DNA of 19,861 bases from Candidatus Thorarchaeota archaeon (GTDB lineage: Archaea; Asgardarchaeota; Thorarchaeia; Thorarchaeales; Thorarchaeaceae), in the NCBI GenBank assembly GCA_016840855.1, contig JAEORO010000068.1, forward strand, positions 1 to 19,861, in the 5' to 3' direction. The notes beneath the pieces were generated by a model. The model was not told where the DNA came from. It did not search any database and saw only the letters and a list, made by a program, of their open reading frames with translations. A program made the translations under genes and the position numbers. Position 1 is the first letter of the stretch. The number at the start of each line of letters is the position of its first letter. Positions 1,646-12,834 of the stretch are shown piece after piece.

Positions 1646-2086
1646 CTAGCTGGATTCAACATCGACTAGATTATCTAAAACTCTATGGAGATATTGCTCA
1701 AACTGGTCTATTTCTTCAGACACAAATCCCTTGTAGAATAGATTCGTCATTTCTACTGAAACTTCAATGTAGACTCTCTCAAGACTTCTAGAGGCTTCAG
1801 TCAACTGAATCAAGGTTTTCCTTTTGTCCTCCTCTGACTGAACACGTTTGATATATCCTGCAGCTTCAAGATTATCAAGCAACTCGCTCAAGGTTGATTT
1901 TCGAAGAAGTGTTCGTTTGGCAAGTAGATTGATCGGCACTCCATCCTTTTGCCATAGAGCAAATAGAACTCGACCTTGTCCAGGACCTATCTCGATATCC
2001 CGTTTTTTCAATATCTCTGCGAATACTCTTCTACCCAGATGATGAATCTGGGTGATTAGAAATCCTCCTTGGCTCTGAGACATCAC
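1646..2086 (-). CDS. MarR-family transcriptional regulator
   Basis: QGRVLFALW...LAKRTLLRKSTLSELLDNLEAAGYIKRVQSEEDKR is a MarR wHTH with the DxR wing; overlaps the upstream gene by 4 nt (operon). Confidence 0.92.
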   Translation of the reverse strand: MMSQSQGGFLITQIHHLGRRVFAEILKKRDIEIGPGQGRVLFALWQKDGVPINLLAKRTLLRKSTLSELLDNLEAAGYIKRVQSEEDKRKTLIQLTEASRSLERVYIEVSVEMTNLFYKGFVSEEIDQFEQYLHRVLDNLVDVESS

Positions 2087-2571
2087 TTTACATCACCCAA
2101 ATCCAACTTAAAGGTCATACTTCCTGTCCAACCTTTTGCAACCAATGGTGTGAATCTGAGAACTGTGTGATCAGGATCATCGTACCCAGTTGGGTAGTAT
2201 CTCTCCCATCCATCATGCCAGATTTCTTTCTTCAAGTCTAAATCTTCAACAATCTCAAATTCTCCGCCAAACATCACTCCCTGAGTAACTTCGGGCTTGC
2301 AGTAGTAGACGGAGGCTGCAGGTTTTGCTTGAATTTCTGCAACTTTCGTGGAAGAGGTATTAGTGGAAAACAGCATCATAAAGTCATCATGATGCTTGGT
2401 AAAAAGTGAAATTAACTTCGGATATCGCTCCTTGTTTCGAAGATTGAACATCGCTCTTGTCTGTGGAAATCCCTTTTCATCAACTGTTGATACATATGCT
2501 GGCCATCCGGTATCTAACAATTTCAGACACATCTCTCTGATCTCTTGTTCGTTCAATGTTGAGAACCCCAT
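2083..2571 (-). CDS. Pyridoxamine 5'-phosphate oxidase-like FMN-binding protein (general stress protein 26-like)
   Basis: STVDEKGFPQTRAM, FSTNTSSTKVAEI, IWHDGWERYYPTGYDDPD motifs. Confidence 0.85.
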   Translation of the reverse strand: MGFSTLNEQEIREMCLKLLDTGWPAYVSTVDEKGFPQTRAMFNLRNKERYPKLISLFTKHHDDFMMLFSTNTSSTKVAEIQAKPAASVYYCKPEVTQGVMFGGEFEIVEDLDLKKEIWHDGWERYYPTGYDDPDHTVLRFTPLVAKGWTGSMTFKLDLGDVK

Positions 2572-6909: not shown

Positions 6910-7527
6910 ATGGAGACCTCGATAGTGAGCCCTCGAAAAGTATACTTTGAACATCCACTTATCAAAGTTGATTTTCAGAAGGTTCGCTTTCCAAAAACTT
7001 GTCCAGTCTGCGGTGCTCCAGCCACCAGAGTTTTACGTATGAAGATAACAAAAACTGGTAAACAATATCTAAGGCGATCATGGCAATATGCTTACAGTCC
7101 ATATATGAGATTCAAACAAAGACCAGACATTTCTGATGTAAAAGTCCTGACTATCCAAGTCTGTGATGACCATGCAAATCCGGATGATGGTACTGAAAGA
7201 TACCAAACTCTTTGCATTATTGTGGATGGTTTGCTTATAGCTTTCGTTATTTTCAGTCTACTAATTGTTGGAGATCGGCTCGCAAGAGCTCGTCCAATTG
7301 ACTTCTGGCCTGCACTATACATAGGTCTCTTTGGAGTAGCCATATTACTCACCGTAATGGCATTCAGACCAAATGCGATTGAAAAAGCTGTAACCATTAT
7401 CGGATTCGATCCTGGAATGCAAAATATCCTTCTTTCCTTCAAGCGCTCAGATTATCGAGAACAATTCATAGATGCAAATCAAATGACATCTGAGTTAGTC
7501 AGTTGGATTGTCCGGGCTGATGACTAG
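6910..7527 (+). CDS. Hypothetical membrane protein with putative Zn-binding motif
   Basis: FPKTCPVCG...VCDDH (CxxC/CxxH) followed by two TM helices. Confidence 0.7.
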   Translation: METSIVSPRKVYFEHPLIKVDFQKVRFPKTCPVCGAPATRVLRMKITKTGKQYLRRSWQYAYSPYMRFKQRPDISDVKVLTIQVCDDHANPDDGTERYQTLCIIVDGLLIAFVIFSLLIVGDRLARARPIDFWPALYIGLFGVAILLTVMAFRPNAIEKAVTIIGFDPGMQNILLSFKRSDYREQFIDANQMTSELVSWIVRADD

Positions 7528-8312: not shown

Positions 8313-8693
8313 TTAGAGTGAGAGCTCAGCTTCGCTCTTCCATAGACCATGAATGTTGCAGTTTGCTGTAGCCATCAAGGTGCCTGATTTGTCAGTTTTG
8401 AAGACAAACTTGGCAACGGGTTCGCTGTAGATTCCACTCGTATCAGCACCCTTAGCAGACTCACCATGGTGATCAAATGTCGCATAACCGATTTCGACCG
8501 GAAACTTCTCTCCTTCAGGCCAAAAGAAAAGGTCTATCCACTTAATGTGGTGAGCTGTTGTGTTTGGATGTGCAATCTCCTTGCCAACCGTTACTTTGAC
8601 GAACGCTTTTCCATCCTCAACCTTCATGATTTCAATAACAGGTACATGTTTCTCAGTTTTCCAATCATCACTCTGTATCCATTTCTTGGACAT
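8313..8693 (-). CDS. sor: Superoxide reductase (neelaredoxin/desulfoferrodoxin Fe-binding domain)
   Basis: EKHVP, HPNTTAHHIKWI and CNIHGLW supply the His4-Cys iron ligands. Confidence 0.92.
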   Translation of the reverse strand: MSKKWIQSDDWKTEKHVPVIEIMKVEDGKAFVKVTVGKEIAHPNTTAHHIKWIDLFFWPEGEKFPVEIGYATFDHHGESAKGADTSGIYSEPVAKFVFKTDKSGTLMATANCNIHGLWKSEAELSL

Positions 8694-8791
8694 TGTTCCC
8701 TACCTCTATTTAGAAACTGTGTCGTCTGATATTCAGATGACTCACTCTAAGCTCATATGTGAAGTCAGTTAAAATACTTCTCTTATGCCTG

Positions 8792-10282
8792 TTAAGCGAG
8801 TTTCGTAAGTTGTTTTGTTATCAATCGACCTCGCTCAGTTAATCCATAATAGGCTCTTTTTCTATTATCAAATGTGGTTTCAATTCTGGTCTGACTAACA
8901 AGACCTGTACTCCTAAGCTCTGAGAGATGTTGGTATACGCTAGGTATCTTTATTGAAATCCCAAAATCATCAACCAGAGTCTTCCAAATCCCGTATCCAT
9001 ATGACTCACTATCCACTAGAATTTGTAGAATTTGCCGCTTTGTCCTCCCTATCTGAGTCGTAAATTTTCTATCTTCTACTCTGCTAAGCAGATATTCAAG
9101 CTTTGACTGTCCCTTAATCAAAATGCGAGCAATTTCTGGATATTTCAAACCCATACCCGTTGCAACACAAACAATCGTGTCTGAAGGCTGAATCCTATCA
9201 GACCGCAACAACTGGCGCAAGGCTGCAATAGGCGTCGCAGATGCTGGCTCTACAAAAACTCCCTCCCGCCTAGCAATAGAGCTGACTGCATCTAAAGTAT
9301 CCTTGTCAGAAACTGAGATTGCAAACCCGTTTGACTCTCTTATAGCTCTTAGGGCTGTATGACCGCATGATGGATTCCCCATGCCTATATCAAGTGCAAT
9401 AGTGGCACCATCTGCAATTGGAATGATCGCATCTGATCCTTTCATGAAAGCATCAACAATCGGAGCACAGCTCGTTGATTGCACTCCCACCAATCTTGTT
9501 TCTATTTCATCAAGAACACCAATTTCCTGTAGTTCTCTCAATCCTTTCCAAATCATTGATAGATGTCCCCCATTTCCCATCGGAACAATCAACCAATCGG
9601 GTGCGTGCCAATTGAGCTGCTCACAAATTTCGAAGATGGTTGTCTTTACACCCTCTAGAAAAATTGAGCTATAGGCTTTGACAAAATAGCTCTGGCGACT
9701 TGCAATCTGTGCTCTCTCCATAGCCCTCTCGTGGTTCTTAACTACCTCAACATTCGCTCCATATGCTAGGATCTGGTAGAACTTTCCTGTATCAATATTC
9801 CCGGTTTGCGCTATGAATACGTTACTCTCCATTCCAGCCCTAGCAGCATAAGCAACAAGAGAAGCTGCAAGATTTCCAGTTGACCCACAGCACAATGATT
9901 GAAATCCCCTCTCCTTCGCGACTGTTACTTCTACAGCAGTGCCACGATCAATGAATGAACCTGTTGGGTTTGTTGTTTCATCTTTGATATACAATGTATT
10001 TAGTCCAAGGTGTCTAGAGAGTCTGTCGCATTTATGAAGATAAGTTCCACCCTCTCCAAGAGAGATTGCCTTTGATGGAACAGATACAGGTAGAAGTTCG
10101 GAGTACTTCCAGATACCTTGTTTTCTTGAAGAGATTGCTTTTCGATTGACCGTTTTCCCTACAGCAGCTAGGTCATATTTTATTTCAAGATAACTTCCGC
10201 AGTCTGAGCATACTCTTTCGCGAAGATCATCCTGATGCTCCTTTCCACATGTTGTACACTCAAATGATGATATGAATGACAT
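8792..10282 (-). CDS. Threonine-synthase-like fold-type II PLP domain lacking the catalytic Lys, fused to a C-terminal PadR-like wHTH
   Basis: N-terminal Zn ribbon, LGEGGT, NPTGSF-I-DRG (canonical SFKDRG), STGNLAAS, PMGNGG, TGMGLK; C-terminal YGYGIW...SVYQHLSEL...RAYYGLTERG. Confidence 0.85.
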   Translation of the reverse strand: MSFISSFECTTCGKEHQDDLRERVCSDCGSYLEIKYDLAAVGKTVNRKAISSRKQGIWKYSELLPVSVPSKAISLGEGGTYLHKCDRLSRHLGLNTLYIKDETTNPTGSFIDRGTAVEVTVAKERGFQSLCCGSTGNLAASLVAYAARAGMESNVFIAQTGNIDTGKFYQILAYGANVEVVKNHERAMERAQIASRQSYFVKAYSSIFLEGVKTTIFEICEQLNWHAPDWLIVPMGNGGHLSMIWKGLRELQEIGVLDEIETRLVGVQSTSCAPIVDAFMKGSDAIIPIADGATIALDIGMGNPSCGHTALRAIRESNGFAISVSDKDTLDAVSSIARREGVFVEPASATPIAALRQLLRSDRIQPSDTIVCVATGMGLKYPEIARILIKGQSKLEYLLSRVEDRKFTTQIGRTKRQILQILVDSESYGYGIWKTLVDDFGISIKIPSVYQHLSELRSTGLVSQTRIETTFDNRKRAYYGLTERGRLITKQLTKLA

Positions 10283-10292
10283 AAGCTATCAT

Positions 10293-10306
10293 GCCTATAT
10301 ATAGGC
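10293..10306. promoter_or_regulatory. Perfect palindrome overlapping the TATA element of a divergent promoter
   Basis: GCCTATATATAGGC in the 63-bp gap between the fusion gene and the ECF S-component gene. Confidence 0.55.
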
Positions 10307-10345
10307 TCAAAGTTATATATCCTATTCATTCTCGGCCATCCACGC

Positions 10346-10909
10346 GTGAATACCATGGAAATGGAGTATTTTCGACCTACACATCGGAGTTCAGCTGTTG
10401 ATATAGCGTTACTTGCTATTATGACCGCACTCTCAACAATTATGACTCTCGCAATTCAGATTCCTTATCCTGGGACAAGCGGCTATTTCAACTTTGGAGA
10501 TACAATGGTCATGCTAGGTGGACTACTACTAGGACCGATAGGTGGATTCATTGCGGGTGGATTTGGTTCCGCACTAGCAGATGTTATCAGCGGCTACACT
10601 TTCTACGCACCAATCACGCTCGTTGTCAAGGGGTTAGAAGGAATGGCAATAGGTTTCTTTAGCTTCAAAACCAAGAAAGTTAGCCGATTAAACAGATGGG
10701 ACATTGTTGGTGTTTTAGTCGCAGCCATTATAATGTTGATAGGGTATTTCTTGGCTCAGGTCATTCTCTTTGACATAGTAGTTGCAATCGGCGAACTCGT
10801 TACAGTCAACCTAGCACAGGTCACAATAGGTGGTGCTGTAGCGCTACTGATAGGCCCAACTATCAGAACATATCTTCGATCCCTAAGTTCAAATCAAATT
10901 GAGCCCTAA
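10346..10909 (+). CDS. ECF transporter S-component (vitamin uptake; HmpT/PdxU-like)
   Basis: GYFNFGD...LLGPIGGFIAGGFGSALADVISGY...APITLVVKGLEG; about 5-6 TM helices. Confidence 0.85.
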   Translation: MNTMEMEYFRPTHRSSAVDIALLAIMTALSTIMTLAIQIPYPGTSGYFNFGDTMVMLGGLLLGPIGGFIAGGFGSALADVISGYTFYAPITLVVKGLEGMAIGFFSFKTKKVSRLNRWDIVGVLVAAIIMLIGYFLAQVILFDIVVAIGELVTVNLAQVTIGGAVALLIGPTIRTYLRSLSSNQIEP

Positions 10910-11016: not shown

Positions 11017-12324
11017 TTGTTTAAACGAAAAGGGATGCCTCTGATGACTGACCGGCAGAAACTGAAAATCGATACCTCTCGTTTGAAAGAGATAAACGAG
11101 TTTCTTCTTCGTGAAGATAATCCACTTGTTAATGACCTTCTCAAGGTGATTGAGAGATACGGTGGCGTTGATGAGATAAACAAGCAAGCACGTGAAGCAA
11201 GGAAACTTGAGAATCTTATTGCTATGCTTGAAGCGAAAGACTCTGATTTCGTAAAAGATCTAAATTGGCTGCAAGATCAAAGAGATAATGAAGCTTTCAT
11301 ATCAATACCTGAATATCGTCACAAAGTGCTTGGTGACAAGGCTGACAGTACGAAATTTGATGATAGCTTTGCTGTTACTTTAGAAATTAGCGCGTGCCAA
11401 TATTTCCCATGGCTCATTGAAGAAGCGAAGCAGTCAATCAAGAAACAAGATCTCATGCCTGGTAGATTTATTCGTGTTCGAAATATGGCGGAGCAAACTG
11501 CCGACAATCAGGTCATCGCATTTGCTGCCGGAATGCAGATTGTTGGTGCATCATATGTTGAAACGCTCGACTCAAAGGGAACTTTTCCTGGTCCAGACGG
11601 CGCGCCTGTGAACGTTCACCTTGGTGGACCAGACACAATCACCGGGTATTTTGGAGGTGTAGGGATGCCTAATGATTTCCCACTTAGATGGGCTGATGAA
11701 TATCTGAAGTACTATACAAAGTACGGTGTGAAACAGGTACTCAACATCAACCCTGGAAGTATTTTAGTTGGTTATATGATGCACAAGCTCGGCATAGATA
11801 TGGAATTCAAGATATCTGTCTTTGTGGGAAATGACAATCCCTATGCATGTCTATGGACTTTGATGACGGCCAAACTTTTCAGTAGAGGTGATGGAACAAG
11901 TCCTCTTATTGGATTCAACCTTTCAAACAGTGTAGACAATCGAACACTAGAACTTGCAGCATATATTCGAAAGGACTTTGGATTCGAAGATGTTGTTAGA
12001 CTTGAACACCACATTACTGAAACCTACAAGAGTATTGTTCGACAACCATACGACCGTCTTCCAGAGCTTCTTGATATTGCAGATCATGTGAAAAACATCA
12101 GTGCAAAGCATGAAGGAGGAGTTCCTGAGCTTGATGCGCAACGCAAACATCCCAGCGACATTCTCGACTATTTCCGACGAAAGAGTGAGATTGAGGAACA
12201 GGGAGAGATGCCTCTCCTAACCCAAAACTATCTTGACAAACATCATGCATTGAATCGTACAGCTGAAGAACTGACCAGACGTGGTCTTACATTCATAGCT
12301 GCACAAAAGCTACATCGGAAATGA
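11017..12324 (+). CDS. Soluble hypothetical protein, enzyme-like
   Basis: 435-aa ORF with conserved-looking motifs (LEISACQYFPW, NVHLGGPDTITGYFGG, RLEHHITE, KHEGG); true start may be ATG 11035 or 11044. Confidence 0.7.
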   Translation: MFKRKGMPLMTDRQKLKIDTSRLKEINEFLLREDNPLVNDLLKVIERYGGVDEINKQAREARKLENLIAMLEAKDSDFVKDLNWLQDQRDNEAFISIPEYRHKVLGDKADSTKFDDSFAVTLEISACQYFPWLIEEAKQSIKKQDLMPGRFIRVRNMAEQTADNQVIAFAAGMQIVGASYVETLDSKGTFPGPDGAPVNVHLGGPDTITGYFGGVGMPNDFPLRWADEYLKYYTKYGVKQVLNINPGSILVGYMMHKLGIDMEFKISVFVGNDNPYACLWTLMTAKLFSRGDGTSPLIGFNLSNSVDNRTLELAAYIRKDFGFEDVVRLEHHITETYKSIVRQPYDRLPELLDIADHVKNISAKHEGGVPELDAQRKHPSDILDYFRRKSEIEEQGEMPLLTQNYLDKHHALNRTAEELTRRGLTFIAAQKLHRK

Positions 12325-12363: not shown

Positions 12364-12834
12364 TCACATATCTGGTTGGAATATATCATCATACATGTCC
12401 TGTAGTCTAGTCTTGTGGACATCTTCTTCTTTTGCTAAGGTTTCAAAAACCGACCTATGATTTGCATTGCTTGTTACTTCAGAGAGCGCCTTGTAGAAGC
12501 TGTTTGCAGCACTCTCTCTCTTTATTGCTATGACCAAAATCTCTTGAGGTGACGAAGAAGGTCGAAGTGGAATATCGACGAGATATTGATCCAAATCCAA
12601 CTTCTCAACTTCTGCAACAGAACGACACGTGAAAGTTTCACATACTCCTTTTTTGAGTGCCTCCTGCAGCTTTTTCTTGTGGATGACCTCTTGATTCGCT
12701 AAATCTTTGAGTAGTTTTTCAGATGCTTTCAGCTCCGAGTTTTTCGCAGCCTTCACATAGAACTCATGTGCTTCCTCCTCCCTCTGAATGGCAAGGGAGA
12801 CTAGTTGCTCAAATGTCTGTTGTACTGTGGTCAA
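12364..12834 (-). CDS. Ferritin-like/rubrerythrin-family di-iron protein
   Basis: Duplicated AIxREE...FY...LAxxExxH helix pairs. Confidence 0.85.
   Translation of the reverse strand: MTTVQQTFEQLVSLAIQREEEAHEFYVKAAKNSELKASEKLLKDLANQEVIHKKKLQEALKKGVCETFTCRSVAEVEKLDLDQYLVDIPLRPSSSPQEILVIAIKRESAANSFYKALSEVTSNANHRSVFETLAKEEDVHKTRLQDMYDDIFQPDM

Follow-up and report, generated by a model that had tools for sequence, protein, structure and literature searches.

The question raised by this locus is what becomes of a threonine synthase (ThrC) that has lost its catalytic lysine and gained a DNA-binding domain. The window, that is, the whole stretch of DNA that was analysed (19,861 nucleotides from a Candidatus Thorarchaeota archaeon), contains such a gene opposite a gene for a vitamin transporter of the ECF type. 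A preliminary description of this DNA took the fusion to be an archaeal analogue, built on a fold-type II PLP domain, of the bacterial MocR/PdxR regulators, and the parts of that proposal that can be checked computationally (the lysine loss, the PadR fusion and the linkage to a B6-type transporter among them) have all held. As discussed below, the product is quite likely not a threonine synthase but a one-component transcription regulator that senses a B6 vitamer and controls vitamin B6 homeostasis.

Domain architecture and annotation

The gene and the domains of its product are arranged as follows:

8792..10282, minus strand: candidate regulator gene for a 496-aa fusion protein, from the list of open reading frames, stop codon included
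10199..10258, minus strand: N-terminal four-Cys putative zinc ribbon (C9, C12, C25, C28), from motif reading
9155..10066, minus strand: ThrC-like fold-type II PLP domain, residues 73-376 (PF00291), the proposed sensor module
8825..9031, minus strand: PadR-type winged helix-turn-helix (wHTH), residues 418-486 (PF03551), followed by a C-terminal helix

Thus, the protein would begin with a zinc ribbon, continue with a ThrC-like domain and end with a PadR wHTH. The motif suggests the ribbon; its four cysteines are invariant in an alignment of 27 sequences, and a lysine-bearing ThrC paralogue from the same genome (L002) has a similar CxxC N-terminus. The central domain matches Pfam PALP over residues 73-376 with an E-value of 1.5e-66, and its best Foldseek match is the threonine synthase 2zsj_A (TM-score 0.86, target-normalised), with ThrC structures as the top matches. 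At the C-terminus, the PadR-like wHTH of the preliminary description is confirmed by Pfam PadR (E 4.3e-10, 39.9 bits against a cut-off of 27), and this domain was detected in 8 of 10 diverse relatives scanned. In the AF2 model of the protein (mean pLDDT 83.2), the PadR part comprises helices at 410-424, 429-440 and 446-458, strands at 462-469 and 475-481, and a helix at 483-495, with a pLDDT of mostly 75-89; this is the PadR topology of three helices, a beta-wing and a C-terminal helix. Residues 387-496 also show weak sequence matches to PadR-family chains in the PDB (3l7w, 1.2e-3, then 1xma, 4ejo and 9qbc).

The regulator is also predicted to form a homodimer, with a score of 0.77 against 0.00 for the best control, which may reflect likeness to known structures, solved ThrC dimers being among these. 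Of 30 proteins with solved structures that are pairs of one chain, 20 reach this mark, as does 1 of the 23 with single-chain structures. The runs share at least 48% of their contacts, the partner pLDDT is at least 81, and the confident part of the predicted interface lies wholly inside the ThrC-like domain.

Databases call the family "threonine synthase" because its members pass the curated thrC cut-offs; the regulator scores 315 bits against a cut-off of 303 for NCBIfam PRK08197, and 209.1 against 167.1 for TIGR00260. The misannotation that had been suspected is indeed found, as the named source records of the family mostly read "threonine synthase". Of the curated models, PRK05638 alone covers the full fusion (query 8-491 to profile 3-440 of 442 positions); it appears to be built from fused proteins, and its name, again "threonine synthase", assigns an enzymatic function. 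The regulator scores 295.8 bits against its cut-off of 421 and is thus a non-member by the NCBI rule. None of 14 control genomes has a PRK05638 member over the cut-off, so the model archaea among them lack the family. As a consequence of these names and cut-offs, threonine synthases would be over-counted in metabolic reconstructions of Asgard and other uncultured archaea.

Loss of the Schiff-base lysine in a retained pocket

The site of the lost lysine was placed by alignments to solved ThrC:

9950..9952, minus strand: codon ATT of Ile111, at the position of the Schiff-base lysine of SFKDRG

Here, NPTGSFIDRG of the regulator aligns with NPTGSFKDRG of the solved ThrC structures 2zsj, 6cgq and 2d1f. 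The codon is two substitutions away from AAA or AAG, and among the query and its 120 best homologues (121 rows) the column holds isoleucine in 107, leucine in 14 and lysine in none. Since isoleucine or leucine occupies the column in every row, Ile111 is not a read error, which agrees with what the codon had suggested at the outset.

The rest of the pocket has been kept. The motifs first noticed in the letters, namely, STGN, the PLP phosphate loop and TGxGLK, are present in the translation as GSTGN (133-137), VPMGNGGH (233-240) and TGMGLK (375-380), and the 27-sequence alignment shows no variation at G136, N137, G236, G238, T375, G378, L379 or K380. In general, almost all positions that are at least 80% conserved in canonical ThrC are still conserved in the lysine-less clade. 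Residues conserved in both include N105, P106, T107, F110, D112, R113, G136, N137, K167, Q170, E210, G211, K213, E218, G236, G238, T375, G376, G378 and K380, and the clear exceptions, weakened in the lysine-less clade, are K111, S134, T294 and P262. As for a possible compensation, any lysine of the lysine-less ThrC domain that reaches 60% conservation is conserved to the same degree in canonical ThrC. The retained residues and the lack of a compensating lysine indicate selection on a binding pocket without catalysis.

The same evidence bears on two other explanations. The protein could be a trigger enzyme with a DNA-binding tail, one that handles PLP with another lysine or with no internal aldimine and that moonlights as a regulator. 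Its scores above both thrC cut-offs and the 16 fused relatives that keep the lysine (see below) would be consistent with this. Nevertheless, a Schiff-base lysine is generally needed for fold-type II catalysis, and the lysine-less domain has no clade-specific lysine that is at least 60% conserved. The genome also has the separate intact thrC that the preliminary description had left to be looked for, in fact as two lysine-bearing paralogues, one scoring 496 bits to PRK08197, which could supply threonine synthase activity. A trigger enzyme is thus highly improbable. The other explanation is that the dead domain serves PadR as a dimerisation scaffold with no small-molecule ligand, and that regulation proceeds through protein level or partners. 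While the missing lysine and a predicted interface wholly within the ThrC-like domain fit such a role, a scaffold has no need of the PTG(S/A)F-DRG loop, the GN of STGN, the G-x-G phosphate loop and TGxGLK, all of which are invariant across phyla, and the tight linkage to genes of one cofactor favours a cofactor-responsive sensor. We consider a scaffold without ligand very unlikely.

Distribution of the fusions

Among 64 PadR-bearing rows (63 representatives at 50% identity plus the query), the residue at the lysine site is non-basic in 57, arginine in 5 and lysine in 2, while the lysine is kept in 80 of the 80 representatives at the same identity that lack PadR and have a complete domain. The best 150 matches in the 50%-identity library include at least 62 PadR-bearing representatives without the lysine. 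In a FastTree phylogeny of the ThrC domain alone (105 rows), the lysine-less PadR fusions form one clade, separated by a branch with an SH-like support of 97. A second fused clade carries arginine (28 loci) or lysine (16 loci), and its S-component gene is placed differently.

A survey of 121 deduplicated loci, gathered partly with the pattern NPTG[SA]F[IL]DR and therefore enriched in isoleucine and leucine, with related genomes that are not independent samples, gave 36 lysine-less fusions, 28 arginine fusions, 16 lysine fusions and 39 unfused ThrC genes. A fusion was called where the alignment covered query residue 470 or beyond. The lysine count includes L134, with the motif FTNSFKDR; L096 and L099 were left out as duplicates of L010 and L011, and the 5′-truncated L069 and L079 stand outside the counts. 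Lysine-bearing matches of 610-627 aa proved to be ThrC+LeuA_dimer fusions and not PadR fusions, and were removed from the fusion counts.

Across archaeal phyla, lysine loss goes together with the PadR fusion and with ECF linkage, as the preliminary description had anticipated. Lysine loss is not universal among the fusions, however: the 28 arginine and 16 lysine loci imply that neither the fusion nor the linkage to an S-component depends on it.

Linkage to vitamin B6 genes

At the 36 lysine-less fusions, an S-component gene lies divergently upstream in 24, pdxS-pdxT divergently upstream in 4 and pdxS-pdxT downstream in 1; the five loci with pdxS-pdxT were read directly (L094, L095, L014, L016 and L037). 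The remaining 7 have neither partner, that is, no B6 gene within 1.1 kb; 3 of them are without upstream sequence, and flanks are ample in L022, L025, L109 and L111. Neither the S-component nor pdxS-pdxT was found beside any of the 39 unfused ThrC genes. Most of the 121 loci were screened with the S-component, pdxS, pdxT, a 435-aa open reading frame (ORF) and a desulfoferrodoxin-like protein as queries, the last two also being products of the window.

In the Asgard sample, the partner gene and the presence of PdxS complement each other. PdxS was found in 24 of 151 sampled Asgard genomes; both lysine-less fusions from PdxS-positive Asgard genomes (2 of 2) adjoin pdxS, and no PdxS was found in 13 Asgard genomes where the fusion lies beside an S-component. 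As pdxS-pdxT is the partner at 5 of the 36 loci, the regulon is fixed on vitamin B6 and not on a phospho-amino acid, and judging by gene context it most likely consists of genes for B6 synthesis and uptake (pdxST and pdxU-type).

These data also weigh on the possibility that the ThrC-like domain senses O-phosphohomoserine, threonine or a relative, and couples amino-acid status to its target genes. Such a ligand would suit a domain of ThrC origin in which most ThrC-conserved residues persist, beyond the presumed PLP contacts, and a B6 vitamer is only the presumed substrate of the S-component. By contrast, the alternative pdxS-pdxT targets, a transporter from the PdxU/HmpT family and the lack of any threonine-pathway gene adjoining the approximately 10 loci whose ORFs were read all argue against it, which makes amino-acid sensing quite unlikely. 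If the ligand were a PLP-amino acid adduct, the two kinds of sensing would be hard to tell apart.

The S-component and B6 supply in the genome

The gene that faces the regulator is:

10346..10909, plus strand: ECF-type S-component of the HmpT/PdxU family, 187 aa from GTG (PF07155)

Its product matches PF07155 (ECF-ribofla_trS), a family that includes riboflavin transporters too, with an E-value of 1.5e-36 (126.5 bits against a cut-off of 26.7), and its sole PDB sequence match is 4hzu_S (E 4.2e-13). The divergent HmpT/PdxU-like neighbour across 63 bp is therefore as first described. According to the relevant passages of PMC4860826, 4hzu_S is HmpT/PdxU2 of L. brevis, with pyridoxamine as the substrate, and its pocket residues are E41, H84, Q87, Y120, N140 and Q143. 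Membership of PF07155 (COG4720) is common to HmpT/PdxU2, PdxU and the archaeal protein, the placement of PdxU and PdxU2 being that given in the corresponding part of PMC9997740. In 55 regulator-linked archaeal homologues, a signature of D/E52, Y/F87, K95, E98, Y134, N155 and Q158 is nearly invariant. Three HmpT residues are identical in it (Y120, N140 and Q143 as Y134, N155 and Q158), and E41 is conservatively D or E (D52 here). In contrast, H84 is replaced by lysine (K95) and Q87 by glutamate (E98). We propose that the linked S-component is a candidate B6-vitamer importer and the regulated target.

The genome, which is 92% complete, yielded no PdxS, PdxJ or Phos_pyr_kin family (PdxK-type) kinase, so B6 uptake would be needed; SNO gave a sub-threshold match only. 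The general ECF module (EcfAA'T) was not found in this 92%-complete genome either, and the only EcfT/CbiQ match belongs to a CbiM-CbiQ fusion that has a CbiO-type ATPase next to it.

Two other ORFs were considered and rejected. The neighbouring 435-aa ORF, a candidate for the missing B6 kinase, has no Pfam, NCBIfam or PDB sequence match; its best Atlas score is 0.88, to hypothetical proteins, and its AF2 pLDDT of 46.6 is too low for a search by fold. As its synteny is limited to the Thor family, it was left out of the system. A PNPOx-like ORF at 2083..2571 was rejected as PdxH, with 22 bits against the pdxH cut-off of 180.

A conserved candidate operator

Between the two start codons lie the following elements:

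10283..10345, no strand: divergent intergenic control region of 63 bp, read from the sequence
10293..10306, no strand: perfect palindrome GCCTATATATAGGC, candidate operator of the PadR domain, 10 nt from the regulator ATG
10313..10320, no strand: TATA-box-like TTATATAT (ATATATAA on the minus strand), read from the sequence

The palindrome reported for the spacer is thus present and perfect. Its 12-nt core, CCTATATATAGG, has one exact copy in the 3.36-Mb genome, where base composition would predict 0.33. With at most one mismatch, it has 25 copies in the 1.19 Mb of the 121 loci, and 22 of these lie 15-40 nt upstream of lysine-less fused genes. The 22 sites span Asgard, Bathyarchaeia and Nitrososphaerota records, plus one record titled "bacterium" (L054), while Thermoplasmata and Methanobacteriota (L014 and L016) have looser, often doubled upstream copies beyond one mismatch. 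The motif is present upstream of the regulator also where the partner is pdxST or absent, and is doubled at some pdxST promoters; it is absent from the arginine- and lysine-bearing fused loci (28 and 16, respectively). This distribution marks the palindrome as a conserved cis-element that belongs specifically to lysine-less fusion genes, with a putative role as operator. The genome itself has two further sites, each with one mismatch: C32:10319 falls within an ORF, and C168:8666 lies upstream of a nitroreductase-like ORF. They were rejected as members of the regulon, their number not being above chance.

The neighbouring element is conserved as well. ATATATAA is kept beside the palindrome in related loci, and the layout ATATATAA-N6-7-CCTATATATAGG-N8-20-start recurs across phyla. 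TTATATAT has its centre upstream of both start codons, by approximately 29 nt for the S-component GTG and approximately 35 nt for the regulator ATG, and typical archaeal promoter geometry suggests a promoter role for it.

It may be asked whether the palindrome is itself a TATA box, shared by or overlapping between two divergent archaeal promoters, and not a regulator site. Its core contains the TATA-like TATATATA, another such element is found at a distance of 6 nt, and both stand at distances from the two start codons that are plausible under the same promoter geometry. Nevertheless, the CC...GG flanks persist in records from Asgard to Nitrososphaerota, Thermoplasmata and Methanobacteriota have looser copies (L014 and L016), and the element follows the regulator even where the partner is pdxST or absent. 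Besides, generic TATA boxes should be everywhere, whereas 22 of 25 copies in 1.19 Mb occur at one position. A TATA box alone is thus an unlikely explanation. Repression in archaea commonly works through binding on a TATA box, and the promoter and operator roles of the palindrome may coexist.

Proposed mechanism and significance

From these observations we infer the ligand, the DNA binding and the sign of regulation as follows. The ThrC-derived fold-type II domain, without its Schiff-base lysine and with its pocket kept save for the four weakened positions, would be the sensor. Most likely, it senses a B6 vitamer, PLP or a relative, through reversible and non-covalent binding. The regulator would dimerise through this domain, and its two C-terminal PadR wHTH domains would bind the palindrome CCTATATATAGG, which lies between the TATA-like element and the regulator start codon, immediately upstream of the presumed divergent S-component promoter. 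Ligand occupancy would then set the transcription of the B6 importer and, probably by autorepression, that of the regulator. Where relatives are B6 prototrophs, this regulator-operator pair would act on pdxS-pdxT instead.

A more specific version, to which we give a modest chance at best, is that the lysine-less fold reversibly gauges free PLP, that the S-component, whose pocket departs from that of the pyridoxamine transporter HmpT by the nearly invariant His-to-Lys and Gln-to-Glu pair, imports a phosphorylated vitamer and that Asgard and other archaea in which no PdxS, PdxJ or PdxK-type kinase was found live on scavenged PLP. If so, one regulator-operator pair would switch between control of uptake in auxotrophs and control of pdxST in prototrophs, and this would be the first vitamin B6 regulon described in Archaea as well as the first transcription-factor sensor derived from a fold-type II PLP pseudoenzyme.

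The niche for such a regulator is open, since the relevant passages of the comparative-genomics study PMC5320631 report MocR regulators, PdxR included, as not present in Archaea; the lysine-less family would fill this gap. It would do so as an independent invention, in which a PLP-enzyme fold was turned into a sensor and fused to a wHTH, starting from different folds. A full-text search of the main text of papers found no description of a ThrC-like/PadR fusion or of an archaeal B6 regulator. In addition, the lysine-less family marks a candidate B6 importer, which, together with the presence of PdxS in only the 24 sampled Asgard genomes mentioned above, points to a widespread dependence on the community for B6.

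Comparison with known systems

With ThrC (TIGR00260/PRK08197), the regulator has its fold in common and is 36-38% identical to solved ThrC chains in structural alignments. It also has the N-terminal zinc-ribbon form of archaeal ThrC, most family-conserved residues and a predicted dimer through the same domain. ThrC, however, has a Schiff-base lysine where the regulator has isoleucine, and the regulator adds a PadR domain and a context of B6 genes rather than threonine genes. The first serine of STGN and the T294/A296 motif are relaxed in the lysine-less clade, and a clade-specific Tyr169 appears.

The PadR family (PadR and LmrR; PF03551) has the wHTH and the C-terminal helix in common with the regulator, which likewise has a palindromic candidate operator beside its own gene. 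Known PadR proteins are approximately 100-190 aa long (98-192 for the PDB matches), whereas here a 390-aa enzyme-derived domain precedes the wHTH. Known PadR proteins generally sense ligands at their own dimer interface; in contrast, the confident interface predicted for the regulator is in the ThrC-like domain.

The closest parallel is with bacterial PdxR/MocR, in which a PLP-enzyme fold is also re-used as a sensor and joined to a wHTH. As far as the relevant passages of PMC5320631 go, PdxR regulons comprise pdxST, pdxK and pdxU, and the gene is often divergent from its target; the archaeal context, with pdxST and a PdxU-type transporter, is alike. There is nevertheless no homology in either part. 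MocR/PdxR have a fold-type I, aminotransferase-like domain with a PLP-binding lysine and an N-terminal GntR wHTH, while the regulator has a fold-type II domain without the lysine and, as its sole DNA-binding match, a C-terminal PadR domain. By this analogy, the best reading of the regulator is as a non-homologous archaeal analogue of bacterial PdxR.

Architecture of the ThrC-PadR fusion

The putative regulator is a fusion of a ThrC-like domain and a PadR winged helix-turn-helix (wHTH), with the following features.

8792..10282 (-): 496-aa fusion gene (ORF list)
within 8792..10282 (-): C9, C12, C25 and C28, an N-terminal ribbon-like motif; all four invariant among relatives
within 8792..10282 (-): PALP domain, residues 73-376 (Pfam, E 1.5e-66)
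9952-9950 (-): codon ATT, Ile111 at the Schiff-base lysine position (alignment to 2zsj, 6cgq and 2d1f)
within 8792..10282 (-): PadR wHTH, residues 418-486 (Pfam, 39.9 bits; gathering score 27)

In HMMER alignments, NPTGSFIDRG of this protein corresponds to NPTGSFKDRG of the solved threonine synthases 2zsj, 6cgq and 2d1f. The protein exceeds the NCBIfam cut-offs for thrC (PRK08197, 315 versus 303 bits; TIGR00260, 209.1 versus 167.1 bits) although the defining catalytic feature of ThrC, the Schiff-base lysine, is absent, and this is why databases name the family "threonine synthase". One NCBIfam model, PRK05638, spans the entire protein including its C-terminal part, with 295.8 bits against a cut-off of 421. 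An AlphaFold2 model built from a 27-row alignment has a mean pLDDT of 83.2; at its C-terminus, a low-confidence linker (residues 404-411) is followed by three helices, a wing of two strands and a last helix. In Foldseek, ThrC structures match the body of the model (2zsj_A, target-normalised TM 0.86, 38% identity). By themselves, residues 387-496 match structures of the PadR family weakly at the sequence level, with 3l7w first (E 1.2e-3) and then 1xma, 4ejo and 9qbc.

A complex predictor gave the homodimer a score of 0.77, against 0.00 for the best control; among proteins solved as pairs of one chain, 20 of 30 attained this score, as against 1 of 23 among those solved as single chains. At least 48% of contacts agreed between runs, the partner pLDDT was at least 81, and the confident contacts (residues 55-175, 333-343 and 378) fall in the ThrC-like domain. 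The prediction supports a homodimer formed through this domain, although the pass may stem from likeness to ThrC dimers that are already solved, and the arrangement of the two wHTH domains lies outside its reach.

The preliminary description had suggested looking for a separate, intact thrC. The genome that carries the fusion (3.36 Mb in 259 contigs, 92% complete) indeed has two further ThrC-like genes, both with the lysine: one of 417 aa on contig C5 (NPSGSFKDRP, PRK08197 313 bits) and one of 400 aa on contig C32 (NPTASFKDRG, PRK08197 496 bits).

Loss of the Schiff-base lysine among relatives

In a word-indexed search, 5762 of the 8000 candidates scored had E <= 0.001, and the best 120, with 49-92% identity, were analysed. 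Both PF00291 and PF03551 are found in 117 of these 120, the remaining three being of 324-433 aa and two of them labelled partial. The source records bear the name "threonine synthase" and are metagenome-assembled genomes (MAGs) of Thor-, Loki-, Hod-, Odin- and Sif-archaeal origin. When these proteins and the window protein were aligned with MAFFT, the lysine column held I in 107, L in 14 and K in none of the 121 rows, and its flanks, P-T-G-(S/A)-F and D-R-G, were invariant or nearly so.

An exhaustive search of 50%-identity representatives returned 12250 matches at E <= 0.001. Among the best 150 of these, the residue at the lysine position in rows that cover the PadR columns is L in 20, I in 18, V in 7, M in 5, R in 5, T in 3 and N, F, A or S in one each; K is kept in just two true PadR fusions, P0185 and P0225. 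Ten further K rows, of 610-627 aa, were considered as PadR fusions and ruled out, as they are of a ThrC+LeuA_dimer type, which was confirmed on the two that were scanned. In these representatives (P0169, P0195 and eight similar ones), a Lys-bearing ThrC domain is followed by the LeuA allosteric/dimerisation domain PF08502. A Patescibacteria record, L087 (632-aa open frame, 610 aa from the alignment start aligned), may be of the same type.

Of the representatives, 146 rows had a complete ThrC domain, and a FastTree tree of this domain alone was computed from 105 of them, taking every PadR row and alternate unfused rows. A branch with SH-like support 97 separates the Lys-less PadR proteins from the rest (56 rows, of which one lacks the HTH and appears truncated). 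The PadR proteins with Arg, Lys or Ser group in a clade of their own (8 rows, support 100). Being unrooted, the tree does not fix the order of lysine loss and fusion. The co-occurrence of both, anticipated in the preliminary description, is borne out by the two surveys, and, as judged from these alignments, loss of the lysine is a trait of the family.

The presumed ligand pocket

In a comparison of 57 Lys-less fusion rows (window protein included) with 80 unfused Lys-bearing representatives, almost all positions that are at least 80% conserved in the unfused set are also conserved in the fusions: N105, P106, T107, F110, D112, R113, G136, N137, K167, Q170, E210, G211, K213 and E218 in the first half, and P234, G236, G238, Q268, E340, G341, E345, P346, T375, G376, G378, L379 and K380 in the second. 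Some of these presumably touch PLP. The departures are at K111 (100% K in the unfused set versus L/I/V/M), at S134 (94% S versus S/T/A/V) and, also clearly, at T294, A296 and P262. No compensating lysine was seen: those conserved in the ThrC domain of the Lys-less clade are conserved to the same degree in canonical ThrC. The sole clade-specific conserved residue is Tyr169, present in 89% of the clade versus Ala/Thr/Val in canonical ThrC, and it is a candidate for replacing a function of the lost lysine or for reshaping the pocket. This pattern can be read as selection for ligand binding without catalysis.

Gene neighbourhood and vitamin B6

Species-representative genomes yielded 80 loci through two patterns, one general for ThrC and the other NPTG[SA]F[IL]DR, the latter of which skews the proportion of I and L among these loci; 42 more came from a sample of 151 Asgard genomes. 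After removal of two duplicates and addition of the window, 121 loci were classified by tblastn, with neighbours taken within 1.1 kb; two 5'-truncated loci were left unclassified and their neighbours uncounted.

Table. Neighbours of fused and unfused ThrC-like genes
Lys-less fusions (n = 36; I 19, L 10, M 4, V 1, N 2): S-component divergent upstream 24; pdxS-pdxT divergent upstream 4, downstream 1; neither 7 (3 of these with <31 nt of upstream sequence)
Arg fusions (n = 28): S-component downstream on the same strand 17, convergent 2; pdxS-pdxT 0; neither 9
Lys fusions (n = 16; 15 plus L134, read by eye): S-component convergent 12, same strand 2; pdxS-pdxT 0; neither 2
Unfused ThrC genes (n = 39; all Lys): S-component 0; pdxS-pdxT 0; neither 39

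The proposed linkage to an ECF transporter thus holds for 24 of the 36 Lys-less fusions and none of the 39 unfused genes; it does not extend to the five fusions that adjoin pdxS-pdxT or to the seven with neither. Direct reading places pdxS and then pdxT after the regulator in L094 (NPTGSFLDRG) and a divergent pdxS-pdxT in L095 (NPTGSFIDRG). In L014, L016 and L037, from records titled as Methanobacteriota, Thermoplasmata and Nitrososphaerales MAGs, respectively, pdxS-pdxT is divergent upstream, with 72-73% identity to the PdxS of L095.

PdxS (PF01680) is present in 24 of the 151 sampled Asgard genomes (9 of the 72 of high quality) and was found in none of the 26 sampled from the window's family, and this sparseness suggests widespread B6 auxotrophy in the phylum. 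All 13 sampled genomes with a Lys-less fusion facing an S-component are PdxS-negative by this search, and both Lys-less fusions in PdxS-positive genomes of the sample adjoin pdxS, these counts being of related genomes rather than independent samples. In the window's own genome (92% complete), PdxS, PdxJ and a Phos_pyr_kin kinase were not found, and SNO has a sub-threshold match only. In all, the gene context points to vitamin B6.

The second fused clade (L110, L113-L135, L024-L072) has the motif PTNSF[R/K]DR, with Arg or Lys at the Schiff-base position, an S-component downstream, on the same strand or convergent, and no CCTATATATAGG motif. Several Arg-type loci without an S-component neighbour are in PdxS-positive genomes (G006, G017, G048, G056 and G076). 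Within the window's genus, the fused gene occurs in the window's genome and in G108 alone (split over two contigs in the latter) and the remaining 7 genomes have ThrC-level matches only; its distribution is thus patchy at short evolutionary range. Another genome, G134, has two fused copies (L010/L096 and L097), each facing an S-component. At L050, an unfused Lys-bearing ThrC, separate PadR-like and S-component-like tblastn matches lie about 2.3 kb upstream and may be parts of an adjacent fused gene that the contig layout interrupts.

The divergent transporter gene

10346..10909 (+): S-component, 63 bp upstream of the regulator (PF07155, E 1.5e-36)

The sole PDB sequence match of the S-component is 4hzu_S (E 4.2e-13), the Lactobacillus brevis HmpT/PdxU2, whose substrate is identified as pyridoxamine in PMC4860826; PMC9997740 places both PdxU and PdxU2/HmpT in PF07155/COG4720. 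PMC4860826 names residues of the HmpT pocket, and when the S-component is aligned to 4hzu_S their counterparts are D52 (E41), K95 (H84), E98 (Q87), Y134 (Y120), N155 (N140), Q158 (Q143) and Y87 (W76). Across the 55 S-components found with regulators of one or other of the three classes, K95, E98, Y134, N155 and Q158 vary little or not at all, and these S-components are therefore taken as one orthologous group. The pocket of this group is related to that of HmpT, yet consistently different.

The genome has a single match to CbiQ/EcfT, a 605-aa fusion of CbiM with CbiQ, which precedes a CbiO-like ATPase (contig C47; L089, 427..2999); a gene of the NikR-like ribbon-helix-helix kind is adjacent. 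Such a system is of the Co/Ni ECF type, not a general ECF module for vitamins.

The intergenic region

Direct reading of the sequence between the regulator and the S-component gives two elements.

10293-10306: palindrome GCCTATATATAGGC
10313-10320: second TATA-like element TTATATAT

Upstream of Lys-less fusions, a common arrangement recurs, ATATATAA-N6-7-(G)CCTATATATAGG-N8-20-start; it is present in records of the Thor, Bathy and Nitrososphaerota types as well as in Ca. Terraquivivens and Ca. Pelearchaeum. With at most one mismatch, CCTATATATAGG occurs 25 times in the 1.19 Mb of all 121 loci; in 22 cases it precedes a Lys-less fusion by 15-40 nt, so that 22 of the 35 loci of this class have it there, and 3 copies lie elsewhere. 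At this distance, none was found upstream of Arg fusions, Lys fusions or unfused genes in the 121 loci. Several pdxST-facing promoters have two copies (e.g., L014, L016, L095 and L106), as in CCTTATGTATAGG-N8-CCTATACATAAG of L014. The motif core is found once in the window's genome, versus 0.33 expected. A 1-mismatch copy, CCTATATATCGG, a variant found in Nitrososphaerota loci, lies beside a TATA-like run at position 8666 of contig C168, just upstream of a nitroreductase-like ORF (8693..9301), and is possibly a chance occurrence.

The archaeal TATA element is centred about 26-27 nt upstream of the transcription start site (TSS). By this rule, TTATATAT could drive a near-leaderless S-component mRNA; in the opposite orientation it could also serve the regulator, whose leader would be about 8 nt long. 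In that arrangement the palindrome would fall between the TATA element and the TSS of the regulator, which would suit autorepression. It would also border the S-component promoter on its BRE side, and its occupation there could repress or activate.

Other genes of the window

1646..2571 (-): MarR-family gene and PNPOx-like split-barrel gene (PF16242/PF01243)
8313..8693 (-), 12364..12834 (-) and 6910..7527 (+): oxidative-stress-type flanking genes
11017..12324 (+): 426-aa protein, directly downstream of the S-component; likely true start Met10 at 11044

The 426-aa protein has no match in Pfam, NCBIfam or PDB. All 8000 scored candidates are homologous at E <= 0.001, and the best 120 of them, 79-100% identical, are every one named "hypothetical protein". 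Its synteny with the S-component is confined to the Thor family, and its AlphaFold2 model (pLDDT 46.6) is too poor for a fold search. The MarR-family and PNPOx-like genes appear to form one operon; as pdxH, the latter was rejected, being far below the cut-off (22 versus 180 bits), and it is probably a generic flavoprotein. The oxidative-stress-type genes encode a desulfoferrodoxin-like protein, a rubrerythrin and a protein with a weak rubredoxin-like motif, and the desulfoferrodoxin gene is kept downstream of the regulator in Thor loci.

Comparison with known systems

That the Lys-less ThrC-PadR family regulates B6 genes is likely, and the chance that its ligand is PLP, bound non-covalently, may be put at about even. 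The functionally closest system is bacterial PdxR, of the MocR subfamily, which combines a PLP-fold sensor with a wHTH and controls pdxST, pdxK and pdxU, and which PMC5320631 reports as not present in Archaea. The HTH of MocR regulators is of the GntR type and their sensor of fold-type I, whereas here the HTH is PadR, the sensor is of fold-type II and, unlike in MocR, the lysine is missing. Since the family departs from MocR in every structural feature that defines membership, it is an analogue and not a member. Full-text literature searches found no description of it. In this reading, the Lys-less ThrC-PadR family is a further case of a cofactor-enzyme fold recruited as the sensor of a transcription factor.
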